A DNA stretch of 64,000 nt from Acutalibacteraceae bacterium (GTDB lineage Bacteria; Bacillota; Clostridia; Oscillospirales; Acutalibacteraceae): contig JBGVKJ010000019.1 of NCBI GenBank assembly GCA_045123695.1, forward strand, positions 204,805 to 268,804, given 5' to 3'. The position numbers and the translations under genes were made by a program. The stretch's first letter is position 1. Each line of letters begins with the position of its first letter. Shown one piece after another: positions 20,109 to 63,707 of the stretch. The notes below the pieces were generated by a model. That model saw only the letters and a list, made by a program, of their open reading frames with translations, was not told the origin of the DNA and made no database searches.

Positions 20109-21197
20109 ATGAAATCTTTTTGTGTTTTAAATAAGCCTTTGAATAAAAAGACGGGTGAAGCACTCGGCACAGCGGCTGTAGGTACACTCGGCAATAAAAT
20201 CGGCTTTCTGCACGACGATTCTGAATGCTCTGCAGCAACTGTGTCAAACCTTGCAAAGGGTGTGAAATCTGCAGGTGCATCTGCCGTTGTTTTTGGCTGT
20301 ATGAATGAATCGTCCGTGTCGTTTCTTATTGACCGTTTTTCGCTTTCGGGTGCTTTTTTTGTCGGTGGCGAAAAACTTATCAGCGTCTATAATTCACTCG
20401 GCAAACCTCTTTCCGTTCACGAAGAGGAAGTGATGTCTTCGCTTATCTTTTCGTCGGGAACAGAGAAAAAAAGGGGTGGATCGATAACTATAATCAATCC
20501 GACCGATTCTTATCTTCGTGCACTTGTCGGAGTGCCGCAAAGTCTTGAAGATATCAGTGTTGCTTTTGAAAGCCGAAATAAAAATATAAAAAACACTTTA
20601 AATTCCGTGCTTAATCTTCTGGGTGGCTATACGGGTGCAAAACCTCGTTTTTGTGTCAGTGAATCGGGCTTTTGCGTAAGTGCTTGCGATGAGAGCGGCA
20701 GGGTGATTACCAACGATGATTTGCTTAACATTTGCGCTGCTTGTGCGATAAAGAAAAAGCGTGAAATCTGTGTGCCTTTTTCTGCACCGAGGTTTCTCGA
20801 TGAGCTTGCTGAAAAGTACGATGTAAAACTTGAACGAAGCTTTGATGGCGGTAATGAGCCGTGGCAGAATGACGGCCTTTTTCTTGTTGCGGAGATATTG
20901 AATAATATGGCAGAGCAGGGGATGGGATTGTCTGCACTTTACAGCTTGTTACCTGCTGTTTCTCATAAACGTAAAAGTATTTTTGTTACTGATGGACTGA
21001 CGCAATTTGCCGATTCTATAGTTTGCGATGAACTTATATCCGATGATTCGGGTGGGATATATATGCGTATGAAGCAGGGAGAAATACTTTTTACACCATA
21101 CCGAAATTCGCAAAAGGTGTGTATGGAGGTGCTTGCCGCAAACAGCGAAACCGCCGAAGAAATTGCGGCAGATGTATATAAACTTCTCTCAACTTGA
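20109..21197 (+). CDS. Hypothetical protein with alpha-D-phosphohexomutase-like layout but no recognisable catalytic Ser loop
   Basis: 362 aa. The N-terminal third resembles PGM/PMM domain I in spacing (LG...IGFLHDDSECS...LAKGVKSAGASAVVFG). I cannot find the T/S-A-S-H-N-P loop or the Mg-binding DGDxDR motif. Confidence 0.3.
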   Translation: MKSFCVLNKPLNKKTGEALGTAAVGTLGNKIGFLHDDSECSAATVSNLAKGVKSAGASAVVFGCMNESSVSFLIDRFSLSGAFFVGGEKLISVYNSLGKPLSVHEEEVMSSLIFSSGTEKKRGGSITIINPTDSYLRALVGVPQSLEDISVAFESRNKNIKNTLNSVLNLLGGYTGAKPRFCVSESGFCVSACDESGRVITNDDLLNICAACAIKKKREICVPFSAPRFLDELAEKYDVKLERSFDGGNEPWQNDGLFLVAEILNNMAEQGMGLSALYSLLPAVSHKRKSIFVTDGLTQFADSIVCDELISDDSGGIYMRMKQGEILFTPYRNSQKVCMEVLAANSETAEEIAADVYKLLST

Positions 21198-38839: not shown

Positions 38840-39256
38840 ATGGTAAAACTTATTCTCGGTCACAAGGGTGCAGGTAAAACAAAGAAGCTTATTGAGCTTG
38901 TCAACGCAGCAGTTGAGAAGTCCACAGGTAACGTTGTCTGCATCGAAAAAGAGGCAGCTCTTACTTACGATATTACACATCGCTGCAGACTTACAGCAGC
39001 TGACGACTATAAAGTAAGCGGTTACGATGCATACTACGGCTTTATCTGCGGTATCTTCGCAGGTGACCACGACATCACAGATGTTTTTGCTGACGCTACT
39101 CTCCGTATCGGCGGCAGAAACTATGACGAGCTTGCAGATTTCCTTGTCAAGGTTGCTGAGCTTTCCGCTAAAGAAGGTAAGGATGTTATCTTCACAGTAT
39201 CCGCTGATAAGGAAGAAATTCCTGCTAAGGTCTTCGAGGTTTGCGAAGTACTGTAA
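38840..39256 (+). CDS. Hypothetical 138-aa protein with a Walker-A-like N-terminus
   Basis: MVKLILGHKGAGKTKKL matches GxxxxGK[ST] directly after a beta-strand. RBS AAGGAG lies upstream. I recognise no other family. Confidence 0.5.
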   Translation: MVKLILGHKGAGKTKKLIELVNAAVEKSTGNVVCIEKEAALTYDITHRCRLTAADDYKVSGYDAYYGFICGIFAGDHDITDVFADATLRIGGRNYDELADFLVKVAELSAKEGKDVIFTVSADKEEIPAKVFEVCEVL

Positions 39257-39893: not shown

Positions 39894-40076
39894 ATGGCAG
39901 TTCCGAAGAGAAGAGTCTCTAAGGCAAGAAGAGACAAGAGACGCAGCAGCGTATGGAAGCTTAATGCACCTGAGCTCGTCAAGTGCCCCAAGTGCGGCGA
40001 GTACAAGAGACCGCACAGACTGTGTGCTAATTGTGGTTACTACAATGGCAGACAGGTAGTTGAAACAGAGGCATAA
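39894..40076 (+). CDS. rpmF: 50S ribosomal protein L32
   Basis: [17 protein letters not shown]... with a CPKCG...CANCG zinc ribbon, 60 aa. Confidence 0.95.
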
Positions 40077-40090
40077 GCTTTAGGCTTTAA

Positions 40091-40135: not shown

Positions 40136-40152
40136 GGATAAATTTTGTATTT

Positions 40153-40341
40153 TTCTGCGTTGTTTCGGACTCGAAATACCTTTGTATTCCTTTGTCCTCA
40201 CGCCTTGAATAACGCAAAATTTATCACGCAAAAACTGACCTTTTGATTTTGTGCTCTTCTGCGTTGTTTCGGACTCGAAATACCTTTGTATTCCTTTGTC
40301 CTCACGCCTTGAATAACGCAAAATTTATCGCGCAAAAACTG
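40153..40341. repeat. Tandem direct duplication of an 85-bp palindrome-containing unit (period 104 bp)
   Basis: Copy 1 (40153-40237) and copy 2 (40257-40341) are identical at 84 of 85 positions; the only difference is A/G at TTATC[A/G]CGC. Each unit contains GAAATAC-CTTTG-TATTCC and the outer pairing GCGTTGTTT/GAATAACGC. Confidence 0.9.
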
Positions 40342-40376
40342 TACTCTTAAAATCATTGGATTTAAGGTGGTTTTTA

Positions 40377-46081: not shown

Positions 46082-46339
46082 ATGCCGAACATCAAATCAG
46101 CAAAGAAGAGAGTTCTTGTCAACAAGACAAAGGCAGCTCGTAACAAGTCTGCTAACTCTGCACTCAAGACTGCAATCAAAAAGGCTAACGCTGCAATCGA
46201 GGCTAATTCTGCAGATAAGGATGTCCTTGTAAAGGCTGCGATCAAGAAGATCGACCAGGCTACAGCAAAGGGCATTATCCACAAGAACAATGCCGCAAGA
46301 AAGAAGTCTGCTCTTACAGTTAAGGCAAACAAGGCTTAA
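46082..46339 (+). CDS. rpsT: 30S ribosomal protein S20
   Basis: [23 protein letters not shown]..., 85 aa, basic and helical. Confidence 0.95.
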
Positions 46340-46611
46340 GGGAGAGCTGATTAATCCGAACTTGCCCAAAGCGAGTCTTTTCATCGCTTTTTGGCGTTTC
46401 GGTTTTGAAAGGCGTCAGCCTTCCTTCAACCTCAACATCCAAAAATCAACTGAAAATATTCGGCTTTTGGGTCGTAGAATTTTCTCAGAGAGGATTTTTG
46501 GTCAACCGAGGCGCAAAACGCAGCAAATACTTTTGTATTTGCGAGTATTTTAACAATGGGTGAGCAGAAATCCTCCTGCGAAAATCACAGTTAGGATTAA
46601 TCAACTCTCCC
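46340..46611. mobile_element. MITE-like non-autonomous element (272 bp, 18-nt terminal inverted repeats, TAA flanks, no ORF)
   Basis: GGGAGAGCTGATTAATCC (46340-46357) against the reverse complement of 46594-46611 (GGGAGAGTTGATTAATCC) matches at 17 of 18 positions, extending to 21 of 23. TAA sits at 46337-46339 and again at 46612-46614. A nested inverted pair lies at 46479-46500 / 46565-46585, and the central hairpin is GCAAATAC-TTTT-GTATTTGC (46523-46542). Confidence 0.5.
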
Positions 46612-46675
46612 TAATGCAGCTTTATTCGAGACCGATGTGTTTGCATCGGTCTCGCAGACTGCCTTTGCAGTCCCT

Positions 46676-46730
46676 GCGGCCGACCTGTGTCTCTCGCTTT
46701 GGGGGAGGTAGAGGTCGGCCGCATTTTTAT
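46676..46730 (+). terminator. Rho-independent terminator (long-loop hairpin) ending the rpsT 3' region
   Basis: Stem GCGGCCGACCT (46676-46686) pairs with AGGTCGGCCGC (46712-46722), followed by ATTTTTATATATTTT. Confidence 0.65.
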
Positions 46731-46748: not shown

Positions 46749-46777
46749 TTGACTTTAACGCAAAATGTAGGTATAAT
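46749..46777 (+). promoter_or_regulatory. Sigma-A-type promoter for the 52-aa ORF
   Basis: TTGACT at 46749-46754, a 17-nt spacer, then TATAAT at 46772-46777. Confidence 0.65.
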
Positions 46778-46813: not shown

Positions 46814-46972
46814 ATGGCAAAGAAGATTCTTAAAATAGTCGGTATTATCGCAGCTATTGCAGCTGTTGTTGCAGGTATTTATTTTGCAGTTAAGAAGATT
46901 AAGGAAAAGAAGGCTGCTGAGGCAAACGATGAGGAGAACTACGTTTCCTGCTCATGCTGTGAGGCTCAGTAA
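46814..46972 (+). CDS. 52-aa single-TM peptide with a Cys-rich C-terminus (not in the ORF track, which lists nothing shorter than 60 aa)
   Basis: MAKKILKIVGIIAAIAAVVAGIYFAVKKIKEKKAAEANDEENYVSCSCCEAQ. GAGGAGG at 46799-46805 lies 8 nt before the ATG. The unit has its own promoter and terminator. Confidence 0.6.
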   Translation: MAKKILKIVGIIAAIAAVVAGIYFAVKKIKEKKAAEANDEENYVSCSCCEAQ

Positions 46973-49310: not shown

Positions 49311-50681
49311 TCAGCCTATAGCTCTCTTGATTTCCTGGAAGAGGACATATATTCTTGTGTCCTTAAACCAAGAAAGGAATTTCTCGATGAATGTCATTTC
49401 AGTGACTTCCTCTTCCCATGTGAGAGGAGCACTGCCGTCATCGATTACGAATGCCTGAGTAAGGCACATACCGCCGTCGCCGAGAAGCTCTGCACGGATG
49501 TATGTGAAGTCCTCTGCACCTTCGATTGTGTCGAGGTCGATTGTGTATGAGCCGTTGCCGTTAACAGCCTGCTTTGCGATAACCTTACCGTCTGCAATCC
49601 ACTGAATCTGCTTTGCATCGGAGTAGTCAACGCTTACCTTATGACCGTCAGTGATAACGTTTGAGAACATCGGGTAGGGGAGATCTGTGTTTGCAACATC
49701 AATTTCCTCTGTCGGACCGATTTCAAATTCGTTTGCACGAAGCTTTCTTGTAACTGAGAAGAAAGCACCGCTCTGCATTGTTTCGTATACTTTTTCCTCA
49801 GTGTTTTCTTCCATCATGAAGATCATAAAGGAAGTGTCGATTGTCTCGAGCCAGTGAGCATCTGTGTTGCTGTAGCCGATAACGTTCTTGCCGTAGGGCA
49901 GGCAGTACATAAGGAGGTTATCCCAGAGGATTCTGTCGTAACCTGTTGTGCCGTTTCTCTCGTTGAAAACCTCTGTGCCGAGGCAGGAGTCGTACTTAAG
50001 GATAATATCACCGAAATATTTGACCATTTCGGGGTCATTGACAACATCGGGATTCTGGTTGGACTGGAGCCAGTCACCGGGATGGTTGATGTGTGAAAGG
50101 CCGTCGTTGTCGTCAACAAACTTAACTGCTTCTTCGTAGCTGTTTTCGCCGCCGTCCCAAGCGTTACCGATATCGGAGGATTTGAAGTAGCCGTTTATGT
50201 GGCTCTTTGTAAGTGTTATGTAACCGAGCTCGTTACCACCTGTAACGCAGGTCATACCTTTGCCTCTGGGCTGTCCGTTCTCAAGCGGATATGTACCGCT
50301 TGTAATGCCCTCGTACTCTTCGTCTGTAAGGTGGTTGACCTTGTTGCCGAGAATGTACTGATAGAGATAAAGGATGGGGCGAGCAGGCTCTTTGTTCCAT
50401 TCAACGCCTGTAACGCCGTGGTCAGCGTTTGCAACAAAATCGAAGCCGCGCTCGTAGTAGCCCTTGATCATTATGGGCAGATCAAGCTCAGCGTCGCTGT
50501 AGGTTGTGTGAGTGTGTGTAGTGCCTTTGTAAGCACCCCATGCGTTGTCGCCTTCCCATACAACATCAGCGTAGGGGGAAACGATTGTGTAGCTTTCATC
50601 TGCAGCAAAAGCCATAAAGCCTGCCTGCATAAGAAAAATTGCTGTGAGCAGTATGCTCAGAAGTTTTGTATGCTTTTTCAC
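49311..50681 (-). CDS. Secreted PHP-like metal-dependent hydrolase family protein (hypothetical)
   Basis: Signal peptide MKKHTKLLSILLTAIFLMQAGFMAFA. His clusters GTTHTHTTYSD, ANADHG, INHPGD and NTDAHW resemble a PHP fold. Confidence 0.5.
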   Translation of the reverse strand: MKKHTKLLSILLTAIFLMQAGFMAFAADESYTIVSPYADVVWEGDNAWGAYKGTTHTHTTYSDAELDLPIMIKGYYERGFDFVANADHGVTGVEWNKEPARPILYLYQYILGNKVNHLTDEEYEGITSGTYPLENGQPRGKGMTCVTGGNELGYITLTKSHINGYFKSSDIGNAWDGGENSYEEAVKFVDDNDGLSHINHPGDWLQSNQNPDVVNDPEMVKYFGDIILKYDSCLGTEVFNERNGTTGYDRILWDNLLMYCLPYGKNVIGYSNTDAHWLETIDTSFMIFMMEENTEEKVYETMQSGAFFSVTRKLRANEFEIGPTEEIDVANTDLPYPMFSNVITDGHKVSVDYSDAKQIQWIADGKVIAKQAVNGNGSYTIDLDTIEGAEDFTYIRAELLGDGGMCLTQAFVIDDGSAPLTWEEEVTEMTFIEKFLSWFKDTRIYVLFQEIKRAIG

Positions 50682-56884: not shown

Positions 56885-57247
56885 TTATATACTTGCTACA
56901 CTGCTGTCAAGACCGAAACTGACGCTGAGAGCCTTGTTTATTCTGCTCATATCTACTGCATCAAGGTTACCCATTTTTTCTTTAAGACGCCTTTTGTCTA
57001 TAGTTCTTACCTGCTCGAGCAGTACAATGGAATCTTTTGCAAGGCCGCAACCGTCTGCGTTTACTTTGATGTGTGTCGGAAGCCCCGTTTTATACTTCTG
57101 GCTTGTTATTGCTGCGGCAATAACTGTCGGGCTGTATTTGTTGCCTATGTCATTCTGCACGATAAGTACGGGACGAATGCCTCCTTGCTCCGAGCCTACA
57201 ACGGGACTCAGGTCAGCGTAGTATATTTCTCCGCGTTTTACATTCAT
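56885..57247 (-). CDS. mazF: MazF/PemK-family mRNA interferase toxin (EndoA/NdoA-like)
   Basis: 120 aa. KRGEIYYADLSPVVGSEQGGIRPVLIVQNDIGNKYSPTVIAAAITSQ... closely resembles the Firmicute MazF/EndoA core. RBS GGAGAG lies upstream. Confidence 0.9.
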   Translation of the reverse strand: MNVKRGEIYYADLSPVVGSEQGGIRPVLIVQNDIGNKYSPTVIAAAITSQKYKTGLPTHIKVNADGCGLAKDSIVLLEQVRTIDKRRLKEKMGNLDAVDMSRINKALSVSFGLDSSVASI

Positions 57248-57356: not shown

Positions 57357-57842
57357 CTATGTAATATCCTTGAATTTGACAGTGATATCTTTATCCTCAT
57401 ATTCAATAAATGTCGGCGTGCAGCTCTCTTTATTTAAATACATTATATAATTACCGTATTTTGATACACCTTCCAGTATGTAAGTCTGCTCGTTTTCGGT
57501 TGCACTTACGGGTAGTGTTACAATAGCAGAATGTATTGCGCCCAGAAGCTGGGTCTGGTGAGTTGTTTCGCCTGATGTGAATTCAAGTCCGTCCAGTGAG
57601 CTGGTAAAATTATCTCCGTCGGTTGAAACTGTCATACCGCAGATTTCTTCAGGAGAAGAAAAAACAGCGCTGCAGCCGTTTTCCTCACAAGTGAAATCGG
57701 CTGTATACGCTGTTTCGTTAAATTGTATGTCTGCTTTTGCTGTGAAAACGCGGTTTACGCATATCTCGGCAGATTTGTTTGCACTGCAGGAGCAAAGTGA
57801 AACGCAGATAATTGCCGATAATAATGCAATAAACTTTTTCAT
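57357..57842 (-). CDS. Putative lipoprotein (hypothetical)
   Basis: MKKFIALLSAIICVSLCSCSANK gives a signal peptide with the lipobox-like LCSC. I recognise no family. GGAAAGGA lies 11 nt before the ATG at 57842. Confidence 0.5.
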   Translation of the reverse strand: MKKFIALLSAIICVSLCSCSANKSAEICVNRVFTAKADIQFNETAYTADFTCEENGCSAVFSSPEEICGMTVSTDGDNFTSSLDGLEFTSGETTHQTQLLGAIHSAIVTLPVSATENEQTYILEGVSKYGNYIMYLNKESCTPTFIEYEDKDITVKFKDIT

Positions 57843-57863
57843 TCGGGCTGTCATCCTTTCCAA

Positions 57864-61925: not shown

Positions 61926-63707
61926 TTATTCCTCAATAAATCCGTAATACATACCGATCCAGTAGCCGAATGTGTATACGTAACAGCTTTCGACAACGTA
62001 AATTCCGCCTGAGTCCTCGTCTTTGAATTCCCACGGATTACGGTCGAATTTTGCAATAAAGTGCTCATCGGGCTGAAGCTTTGCCGATGTTTCGATATAG
62101 TCGTAGCACCAATGGTGCTTCTTTGCAATGTCAAAACGTGTGTCCATGCTGACACCTGCAGCAAGACGGCTGACATTGAAACGCTCAAACCATTTTGCGT
62201 TCTTCTCAAGGTCAATACCCTCTGTGCCTACGCTGAGTGCAAAGGGATACTCGTAGCCGGGTGTGTTTTCGCGGCAGACAGTACCTCTCCATGTGTTGAA
62301 TGCACGTGTGTAGATATCAAGAAGTTTTTCATCTTTTTCAAGAATTGAAAGCATCCAGAAAGAGGATACTGCGAGCATATTATCACCGTACATAAGCTCT
62401 GCGGCAATATCGTTGCCCTCGAAGAGTGAGGTCTGGAATGCTCTGTCATAGTGCTTGAGTGTGAGGTCAGCATAGCCCATATCGATGAGCTTGTTGTATT
62501 CCTCAGTCCACTTGCTGTCACCTGTGATATACTCGGTAACCTTAAGGTATGCAAGCAGCTCTGCGGAGTTAAGGCAGGCATCTGTCCAACCCATATAGGT
62601 GTTGAAGTAATCAAGATTCCATTTTGCCCATGTTGTCGGCTTGCCGTCACACTCTGTGAGCTGATAACCGCCTTCGACGATGTGTGTCATAAGTGCAGTA
62701 GCAGTCTGCTTGATAAGCTCGTCAAGCTCGGGGTCAACATCTGCAAGGAACATGTGTGCAAATAGCATCTGCAGGAAGTGTGCAGTTACTTCGTCACTGC
62801 TTGTGTCGCCTTTGTAAATCATACCCTCTTCGGTGTAACCGTGCTCTGTAAAACAGCGGCGGAGTCTTTCGGGAATGGGGTAACTTGCGTCTATTTCAAG
62901 ACCTGCAATGCCTTTTTGTTTTGAGAATGATGTTTCAACACATACTGCTTTGTCACCGTTAATGCGGTAGAAAAGACCGTCATCGGGGATAGGTTCGTCG
63001 TGCATCATATAACTTCTTGAGGGGAAGCCGTTACCTCTCTTTGAAAGGTACATAAAGAGAAGACAGGTTTCACAGGTGCGTATTGCAAACTCTTTAGCGG
63101 CAATTGTTTCGGGTGCATCTGCACCGAGTTCACGCTTGAGAGTAGCATAGCGGAAAAGCATACCGACAGAGAACCATGATGTGAAGCCGCCGTCGTTATC
63201 GCAGTGACCGTAGGGCACTTTTGAGCTGAAGTCTCTTGCAACATCAAGGTGCTTCTGAGCCATCATACCTCTTCTGCTGACTATATCAATTGATTCCTGA
63301 AGCAGCATTTCTGCTTTTTCTCTTGTTGAAACGGGCTTCATTTCTATATGCACAACGCCTGTTTCTGTCTGTACCCAGCAGCCCTTGTCGCCGTCGCTGA
63401 TAATTGAAAGAACAACGTTGTCGTAAAGATAACGGTTAGCGGTGAAGTGCATAACCTTATCTTCGTCATCTTCTTCTGTGGGACACCAGCGTGTTACACC
63501 GCCGTTTGAACCGAGCCACATTGTGCCGTCAGCATTGACAGCGTGGCAGGTATAGTCCTTCTTGCGTGAGGGCAGGGGGATTCTGACGGATGAAAGGTCA
63601 GGTTTTACCGATTCTGCCGAAAAGAGCTCGGCAGGTACTGCAGCATCGTCTTTTGAGTAGAATGTGCAAAATCTGTTGAGTGTGGTGTGAAGCTTGATAG
63701 TTTTCAT
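61926..63707 (-). CDS. Hypothetical 593-aa protein co-oriented with and 15 nt upstream of the GH38 gene (possible glycoside-hydrolase-like helical barrel; unverified)
   Basis: Long uninterrupted ORF with an RBS (AAGGAGGA) upstream and no signal peptide. I can name no motif. The functional guess comes from operon context only. Confidence 0.35.
   Translation of the reverse strand: MKTIKLHTTLNRFCTFYSKDDAAVPAELFSAESVKPDLSSVRIPLPSRKKDYTCHAVNADGTMWLGSNGGVTRWCPTEEDDEDKVMHFTANRYLYDNVVLSIISDGDKGCWVQTETGVVHIEMKPVSTREKAEMLLQESIDIVSRRGMMAQKHLDVARDFSSKVPYGHCDNDGGFTSWFSVGMLFRYATLKRELGADAPETIAAKEFAIRTCETCLLFMYLSKRGNGFPSRSYMMHDEPIPDDGLFYRINGDKAVCVETSFSKQKGIAGLEIDASYPIPERLRRCFTEHGYTEEGMIYKGDTSSDEVTAHFLQMLFAHMFLADVDPELDELIKQTATALMTHIVEGGYQLTECDGKPTTWAKWNLDYFNTYMGWTDACLNSAELLAYLKVTEYITGDSKWTEEYNKLIDMGYADLTLKHYDRAFQTSLFEGNDIAAELMYGDNMLAVSSFWMLSILEKDEKLLDIYTRAFNTWRGTVCRENTPGYEYPFALSVGTEGIDLEKNAKWFERFNVSRLAAGVSMDTRFDIAKKHHWCYDYIETSAKLQPDEHFIAKFDRNPWEFKDEDSGGIYVVESCYVYTFGYWIGMYYGFIEE

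Follow-up and report, generated by a model that had tools for sequence, protein, structure and literature searches.

A palindromic 272-nt insertion at the rpsT stop codon of an Acutalibacteraceae bacterium, a probable MITE-like element with a second polymorphic site in a V-ATPase operon

Small non-autonomous repeats of bacteria, among them Correia/NEMIS, RUP and ERIC, have been reviewed by Delihas (PMC2229807). RUP measures 107 bp, exists in about 108 copies, has termini that match those of a resident IS630-family element and shows a TA duplication, while ERIC is reported to affect mRNA stability in a way that depends on its orientation (PMC2229807). The target duplications of possible partner transposons are 2 bp (TA) in IS630/Tc1 elements and 0-4 bp in the IS5/ISL2/Harbinger (PHIS) group (PMC10045372). 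Here we describe a 272-nt segment that directly follows rpsT, the gene of ribosomal protein S20, in a stretch of 64,000 nucleotides (the window) from an Acutalibacteraceae bacterium (assembly GCA_045123695.1, contig JBGVKJ010000019.1, positions 204,805 to 268,804 of the forward strand). The segment is polymorphic for presence and absence at rpsT, recurs at a second locus in the same target motif, has left a remnant in one lineage and lies in recombination patches. We read it, with a probability of roughly 0.6, as a non-autonomous insertion of the kind of the MITEs (miniature inverted-repeat transposable elements), of transposase-mediated origin, about 273 nt long, with inverted termini of 18-23 nt and no gene.

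The evidence for an insertion comes from a look-up of the window's exact S20 protein in public assemblies, which gave ten related contigs with the gene order spoIIP-gpr-rpsT-small gene. Nine of the ten contigs encoding an identical S20 are empty, and so are all 17 loci with S20 variants of 93% protein identity; overall, the element is absent from 27 related rpsT loci. The empty alleles of the identical-S20 set continue after GGCTTAA with GCAGCTTTATT, AGCAGC or ATCAGC. One of the empty loci (L026) matches the window at 97.7% identity on the upstream side and at 96.9% on the downstream side, which is within species-level distance. Filled rpsT alleles are found in L022, whose flanks are 99% identical to those of the window, and in L051 and L013, and the element copies of L013 and L022 share 99.3-99.6% identity with the window copy. 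Because rpsT sites without the element exist and a copy stands at an unrelated, likewise polymorphic locus, the segment is an insertion and not native 3' untranslated region (3' UTR) or a conserved small RNA (sRNA). The preliminary description of this DNA had taken the segment for an acquired, mobile insertion, a reading that the 27 empty loci and the second polymorphic locus bear out: the segment is neither confined to a single locus nor present in all relatives, and empty sites are at hand.

The second locus lies in a metagenome-assembled genome (MAG) of the Acutalibacteraceae, L008, where a full 273-nt copy, 92% identical to the window copy, separates the V-type ATPase genes ntpB and ntpD; the rpsT site of the same assembly (L027) is empty. 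A search for NtpD homologues, followed by a look-up of their contigs, showed that contigs with identical NtpD proteins may be either filled or empty. The empty contigs read GGCCTAAGTAAGGAGGA and encode an NtpB of 430 amino acids (aa) that ends in ...EFWPK, and the filled contigs read GGCCTAAA[GGGAGAGG...CTCTCCC]TGGGAAAGGAGGA (element in brackets) and encode an NtpB of 434 aa that ends in ...EFWPKGRGE, its stop codon being a TAA inside the left terminal repeat (L008 1321-1340; L037 2207-2221). The ribosome-binding site of ntpD is kept in the filled contigs. The left repeat of the filled ntpB/ntpD alleles has two substitutions and an extra A before it, which may be an adjustment after insertion.

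The ends of the element are inverted repeats (Table 1). The 18-nt core at 46340-46357 matches the complement of 46594-46611 at 17 of 18 positions, and the arms reach 21/23 when extended and 25/29 once the flanks are counted; with up to three mismatches allowed, the 18-mer occurs twice in the 64 kb, both times as an end of the element, the chance expectation from shuffles being 0.04 matches and two matches having been obtained in none of 100 shuffles. On the left side, the boundary set by the empty sites is the end of the repeat. The inverted termini of the preliminary description are thus confirmed as lying beyond chance, and so is its observation of a TAA on both flanks, the left one (46337-46339) being the rpsT stop codon and the right one standing at 46612-46614. 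The left repeat contains an 8-bp palindrome, GATTAATC, as well as in-frame TAA/TGA stops. The GC content of the element is 42.6%, compared with 44.7% for the window, and the other copies have 273 nt, the window copy lacking one A near element position 31. Short open reading frames (ORFs) overlap the element, so that the earlier term "ORF-less" is not literally exact, but it holds where it matters: the 1-nt deletion of the window copy shifts every frame between copies that are 99% identical, hence none of the ORFs is conserved, and the concatenated six-frame translation of the element, meant to catch spurious or chimeric gene calls over copies, had no match among 5.8 billion proteins. A size below about 600 bp without coding capacity, inverted repeats at the exact ends of the unit, and filled and empty sites together with copies at unrelated loci (rpsT and ntpB/ntpD, both polymorphic) are features that the element has in common with MITEs.

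Table 1. Features at and around the insertion behind rpsT, in window positions
Feature	Position	Strand	Remarks
rpsT (ribosomal protein S20) coding sequence	46082-46339	+	TIGR00029, E 3.4e-23; identical protein on many related contigs
Inserted 272-nt element	46340-46611	.	absent from 27 related rpsT loci
Left terminal inverted repeat	46340-46362	+	18-nt core GGGAGAGCTGATTAATCC
Right terminal inverted repeat	46589-46611	-	reverse complement GGGAGAGTTGATTAATCCTAACT
Arm A, first long imperfect hairpin of the predicted Y-shaped fold	46364-46472	.	in minimum-energy and centroid structures
Arm B, second long imperfect hairpin	46474-46587	.	apex a perfect 8-bp stem with 4-nt loop, 46523-46542
TAAT	46612-46615	+	repeated TAA plus one T; in no empty allele
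First hairpin of the native rpsT 3' UTR	46627-46654	+	in filled and empty alleles; outside the element
Native rpsT terminator	46675-46729	+	long G+C-rich hairpin, then T-run; conserved with covariation
Window ORFs without family match	20109-21197, 38840-39256, 49311-50681, 57357-57863, 61926-63707		

The two insertion sites have their target in common. The left junction reads GGCYTAA and then the element at both, and both empty targets contain GGCYTAAG: GGCTTAAG, which lies inside the palindrome GCTTAAGC, at rpsT, and GGCCTAAG at ntpB. GGCYTAAG occurs three times in the 64-kb window (about one per 20 kb), which matches chance, and because an 8-mer of this rarity was hit twice, two independent insertions on it are unlikely without a target preference; given the TAA, the calculated probability that at least four of the five remaining target positions are shared is about 0.016. 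The two copies point the same way with respect to the target, and each is oriented with the transcription of its upstream gene.

The remaining filled alleles can be understood from the sequences around them. Across ntpA, ntpB and ntpD, L008 is about 8% diverged from L037, and the two share a mismatch-free block of 333 nt that consists of the element with 45 nt upstream and 15 nt downstream of it. The 20-nt spacer that separates the element from ntpD sets L008 apart from its closest empty relative, L034: five substitutions and an indel are concentrated there, from which it follows that element and spacer were acquired jointly in a short patch. In the rpsT region, the window and L013 are diverged by about 12% to about one base in seven up to position ~45889, and from there to at least 47008 they differ at about 1.3%, with two differences in the element, which lies inside this tract; the stretch of low divergence resembles an import of at least 1.1 kb. 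Exchange between related lineages by homologous recombination would explain identical elements in diverged backgrounds without repeated transposition or selection, and filled alleles appear to have spread by short patches of this kind between lineages that are 8-12% diverged. Since recombination accounts for the other filled alleles, two independent insertions only are documented.

At the rpsT locus of L016, whose non-coding flanks are 70-86% identical to those of the window, just 26 nt (GGGAGAGTTGATTAATCCGCTCTTAC) stand between the stop codon and TAATGCAGC. Because GATTAATC is palindromic, its copies in the two terminal repeats are direct repeats as well, and a deletion between these cores predicts a product of 26 nt, which is exactly the length found. 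In Tn10, nearly precise excision is a deletion between short repeats inside the inverted ends that leaves a small palindromic remnant. Similarly, the 26 nt of L016 form a small hairpin from both ends of the element between the original flanks (TAA...TAAT) and are, by analogy, probably the remnant of a nearly precise excision; unlike the Tn10 case, the mechanism here is a presumed one, and at 5 of 26 positions the L016 sequence is not the one predicted. The reverse order of events, with the 26-nt hairpin present first and an inner element entering it under an 8-bp duplication of GATTAATC, was considered and rejected, as this hairpin is in the empty alleles of neither locus.

We propose that integration took place at the TAA in a GGCYTAAG target (at rpsT, this TAA is the stop codon within GCTTAAGC) and added the element and about 4 nt. 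The movement was, we infer, transposase-mediated, the enzyme presumably being supplied in trans, as it is not encoded in the window. A second integration by the same family would have taken place in a related lineage in GGCCTAAG, at the end of the V-ATPase gene ntpB. Homologous recombination would then have moved filled alleles among diverged lineages of one ruminant-gut clade of Acutalibacteraceae, and one lineage may have lost most of the element by deletion, keeping the 26-nt hairpin remnant.

The element is upstream of the native rpsT terminator and inside the transcription unit, and the ntpB/ntpD copy is upstream of ntpD, ntpI and ntpK. Lying between the stop codon and the native terminator in the one case, and in the ATPase operon upstream of genes that need expression in the other, the element should be transcribed within the mRNA in both; a promoter-like site was not found in the element at the operon-internal ntpB/ntpD site. 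The minimum-energy fold is Y-shaped, with a terminal stem made from both ends and two arms, and about 76% of the bases of the element are paired in it. The preliminary description had foreseen one long imperfect hairpin, in place of which the Y shape is predicted; the nested inverted pair and the perfect hairpin at 46523-46542 that it listed are both present, the former resolving into 46479-46488/46576-46585 and 46490-46507/46558-46575. Folding energies are -109.2 kcal/mol (z -8.6) for the + strand and -114.3 kcal/mol (z -10.4) for the - strand, and none of 200 shuffles was as good on either. Most likely, the element is co-transcribed as part of the mRNA, in which it would form the large Y-shaped structure of the model, and it may influence mRNA stability, processing or coupling.

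Whether this structure matters as RNA can be approached by comparing the copies of the two sites, which differ at 21 of 273 positions, 18 of these being within the first 175 nt; element positions 176-227 (about 46514-46565, in Arm B) are invariant. One compensatory pair in Arm A (T-A to C-G) separates the copies. Read on the sense strand, the differences between the sites amount to two compensatory changes, four one-sided changes kept as G-U, four gained and three broken pairs, and read on the antisense strand to two compensatory changes, two kept, three gained and six broken pairs. These counts, drawn from two independent sequences, are a weak hint at best in favor of a structure of the sense-strand RNA. 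Folding energies are equal across the strands under RNA and DNA parameters alike, strong hairpins form on both strands under DNA parameters as well, and the counts of G-U versus A/C (4 versus 3 in the window copy, 7 versus 2 in L008) have no clear strand bias. Rfam 15 gave no match at the gathering score anywhere in the window, and with E values up to 1 the sole match was asX2 (19.5 bits versus a gathering score of 70).

Both the junctions and the copy number weigh against a MITE-like element moved by a transposase. The rpsT site has gained the element and TAAT (272 + 4 nt), not an exact target duplication: the empty alleles read GCTTAAGCAGC, GCTTAAAGCAGC, GCTTAAATCAGC or GCTTAAGG..., and the sequence ...TTAATGCAGC... 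that a perfect TAA duplication requires of an empty allele is present in none of the 27. The position right after the rpsT stop codon is prone to indels. At ntpB, "A" + element + "TGGGA" stands in place of "GT", with a net gain of 4-5 nt and no flanking repeat. The TA/TAA duplication with regenerated stop codon that had been suggested is therefore not an exact one, and while the empty rpsT sites that had been predicted do exist, the form foreseen for them, ...GCTTAATGCAGC..., was never seen. Duplications of TA, TAA, TTAA/CTAA (YTAR), TAAG and GGGA were all tried as models and none fits both sites without extra changes. The worst fit is that of the 2-bp TA duplication, which would need two substitutions at rpsT and a shift at ntpB/ntpD; with a net gain of 4 nt at the former and 4-5 nt at the latter, a duplication of the IS630/Tc1 type does not fit, and the IS630/Tc1-like assignment of the preliminary description is not upheld; an insertion sequence (IS) with these termini was found in none of the collections searched. 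With two events only, the shared GGCYTAA could also reflect microhomology-mediated illegitimate recombination rather than the specificity of a transposase.

As to copy number, several copies per genome and a cognate IS with matching termini, both usual for a MITE, are missing here. One genome per species (185,579 species representatives) was scanned for the exact terminus GGGAGAGYTGATTAATCC, and 14 of the 17 hits were due to chance, leaving three real ones (L013, L016 and L008), one per genome; multiple copies, which the preliminary description had named as support for mobility, were not found. The chance hits, matches of 18-26 nt in L001, L005, L015 and 11 other non-Clostridia hits, lie in coding or unrelated sequence. 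One of these, at L005 3390-3415 in a Bacteriovoracaceae MAG, is identical over 26 nt to the right end of the element and falls within coding sequence; as no other part of the element accompanies it, it was counted as chance, though it is long for that. The copy count per genome is a lower bound, given that MAGs are incomplete; however, many copies are unlikely, because the element lies inside long short-read contigs, which a multi-copy repeat of 270 nt would usually break. The window holds no further copy, an nhmmer profile of both copy types found no diverged copies in 367 kb of related loci, and phage and plasmid collections, queried by BLAST with the element, returned nothing. With the 41-43-nt ends of the element as queries, BLAST against plasmids gave chance hits inside coding genes only; scans of IMG/VR with the terminus and with an internal 23-mer gave chance hits or none, and a 22-nt terminus pattern had two chance hits only in the JGI metagenomes. 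The exact-match scan of the 185,579 species representatives revealed no longer element with these termini, and no cognate IS was found in species representatives, JGI metagenomes, IMG/VR or plasmids, although a diverged partner could be missed, since the scans needed exact termini and the plasmid BLAST tolerated limited mismatch. As had been stated earlier, the window has no transposase gene: it has 50 ORFs with a length of 100 aa or more, of which 45 belong to housekeeping families or to further ones other than transposases, five have no family match (Table 1) and none matches a transposase. A family that is low-copy, with two documented independent insertion sites, and a partner transposase that these searches did not find are the main weaknesses of the MITE reading.

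Other origins have to be set against this. A structured 3' UTR or sRNA native to rpsT and inherited vertically would agree with the segment's high degree of structure and its place within the transcription unit, but this is refuted by the empty sites, the closest of them 97-98% identical to the window, and the copy at an unrelated locus and the lack of an Rfam family speak against it as well. A functional structured-RNA module that stabilizes, processes or decouples mRNA and spreads because it is useful, the DNA palindrome being a by-product, is an unlikely candidate. Both insertions are co-oriented with transcription, immediately past a stop codon and inside a transcription unit, most bases are paired, the sense strand has kept more and broken fewer pairs than the antisense strand besides the two compensatory changes, and identical copies occur in backgrounds about 8% diverged. 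Against it, energies are equal on both strands and the G-U counts lack a clear strand bias, only two independent copies were sampled, no Rfam family matches, recombination patches explain identity across backgrounds without selection, and, should the target motif be asymmetric, the choice of target would suffice to produce the co-orientation. Moreover, most relatives do well without the element.

The irregular junctions, with an exact duplication at neither site, the 7-nt GGCYTAA identity at the left junctions, which could be microhomology, and the single copy per genome without a partner IS would all suit a one-off capture of a palindromic fragment (debris of an IS, phage or plasmid) by illegitimate or microhomology-mediated recombination, immobile thereafter and later shuffled by homologous recombination. 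We regard this as rather improbable, because the unit is complete with both precise inverted ends at both loci, ends that random capture would not conserve; inverted repeats running right up to the boundaries are the hallmark of DNA on which transposases act, and the right junctions have no microhomology. Very improbable is an element moved as single-stranded DNA by a transposase of the IS200/IS605 (HUH/Y1) type, which would have placed it 3' of YTAA without duplication. The position of both copies directly 3' of YTAA, the missing exact target duplication and the strong hairpins on both strands, DNA parameters included, are as such a mechanism would have them. IS200/IS605 elements are without terminal inverted repeats, though, whereas the present element has true ones up to its ends; its right flanks differ (TAAT versus TGGGA), which does not suit a fixed right-end cleavage site, and neither a TnpA nor a TnpB gene was seen. 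Finally, the element could itself be a unit of selection or drive, as an RNA module or as a homing-type element, and not a passive decaying relic, which we hold to be quite improbable. The RNA version would mean a horizontally spreading module that targets stop codons in GGCYTAAG, brings its own stops and alters the fate of the host mRNA, and in the homing version a nuclease acting in trans would cut empty GGCYTAAG sites, into which the element would then be copied; this would explain why the flanks co-converted with identical copies are very short in lineages that are about 8% diverged.

The surroundings of the two loci offered some observations of their own. The native rpsT 3' UTR (46616-46729, present also in L016, L018-L027 and L052-L068) has its first hairpin about 15 nt past the stop codon; in an alignment fold of 15 loci, 16 of the 31 pairs of its two hairpins show compensatory changes, and no Rfam family matches them. 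Directly 3' of rpsT, a small gene (46814-46972) with a near-consensus promoter-like TTGACT-17-TATAAT of its own (46749-46777) encodes, in all relatives, a protein of 52-55 aa with one hydrophobic helix and a Cys-rich tail (SCSCCEAQ), for which no Pfam family is on record. A 104-nt unit with the 19-nt inverted repeat GATAAATTTTGTATTTTTC / GAATAACGCAAAATTTATC is tandemly duplicated at 40137-40348, its copies being 93% identical, just past the terminator of the L32 gene rpmF (39895-40077), and is found in L013 (6780-6997) too; it could be another small palindromic repeat. The families recognized in the window include miaB, mutS, mutL, miaA, spoIVA, RNase HI, RNase J, proS, pgi, der, spoIIP, gpr, rsmI, mgtE and glgP, and a gene of a MazF/PemK-type toxin (56885-57247; PF02452, E 5e-35) stands amid these housekeeping genes; the 64-kb window has no tRNA gene. 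In the V-ATPase operon of the metagenome contig L045 (2097-2907), which is about 240 nt shorter than that of L037, subunit I after ntpD is called at 287 aa, not 639 aa, and an 810-nt stretch is without a gene call, which may be due to a deletion, a frameshift or an assembly fault.

If read as proposed, the element is not a new kind of system; it would be a previously undescribed family of small mobile elements from uncultured ruminant-gut Clostridia (Acutalibacteraceae). Two highly expressed loci, the 3' UTR of a ribosomal protein gene and the interior of a V-ATPase operon, have filled as well as empty alleles, a natural contrast in which the effect of a 270-nt structured insert on mRNA could be measured, and the short recombination patches that appear to carry the insertion allele between lineages 8-12% diverged would be a useful marker of gene flow in gut populations.

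In its inverted termini, lack of coding capacity, TA-containing target, transcribed intergenic location and a fold in which the ends pair, the element resembles the reviewed repeats as a group. Correia/NEMIS, the bacterial MITEs of Neisseria, are likewise short and non-coding, with inverted termini and an A+T-rich TA target, are often co-transcribed and have 5' and 3' ends that pair (PMC2229807). They measure, however, about 100-155 bp, number in the hundreds and show a clean TA duplication, whereas the window element has 272-273 nt, a predicted Y-shaped fold, about one copy per genome and no exact duplication, and there is no sequence similarity between the two. RUP of Streptococcus pneumoniae, which is mobilized by IS630-Spn1, shares with it the non-autonomous nature, a Firmicute host, inverted termini and TA in the target, and is set apart by its TA duplication and its IS with matching termini; at the sites of the present element the net gain is 4-5 nt, and the searches found no IS that matches. 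ERIC (IRU) sequences are imperfect palindromes in transcribed intergenic regions, just 3' of ORFs or between operon genes, as the window element is, but are 127 bp long, enterobacterial and present in many copies. The IS5/ISL2/Harbinger group favors TAA/TTA or YTAR targets and has GG/GA termini. Both targets of the present element, TTAA and CTAA, are YTAR, the gain is about 4 nt and the window element ends in GG...CC, whereas its right-hand copy of the target is TAAT or TGGG, not an exact repeat. As a lead, and not as a classification, our closest guess by analogy is a duplication of 3-4 bp at a target of the TAA/YTAR type, of the sort that members of the IS5/ISL2/Harbinger group make.

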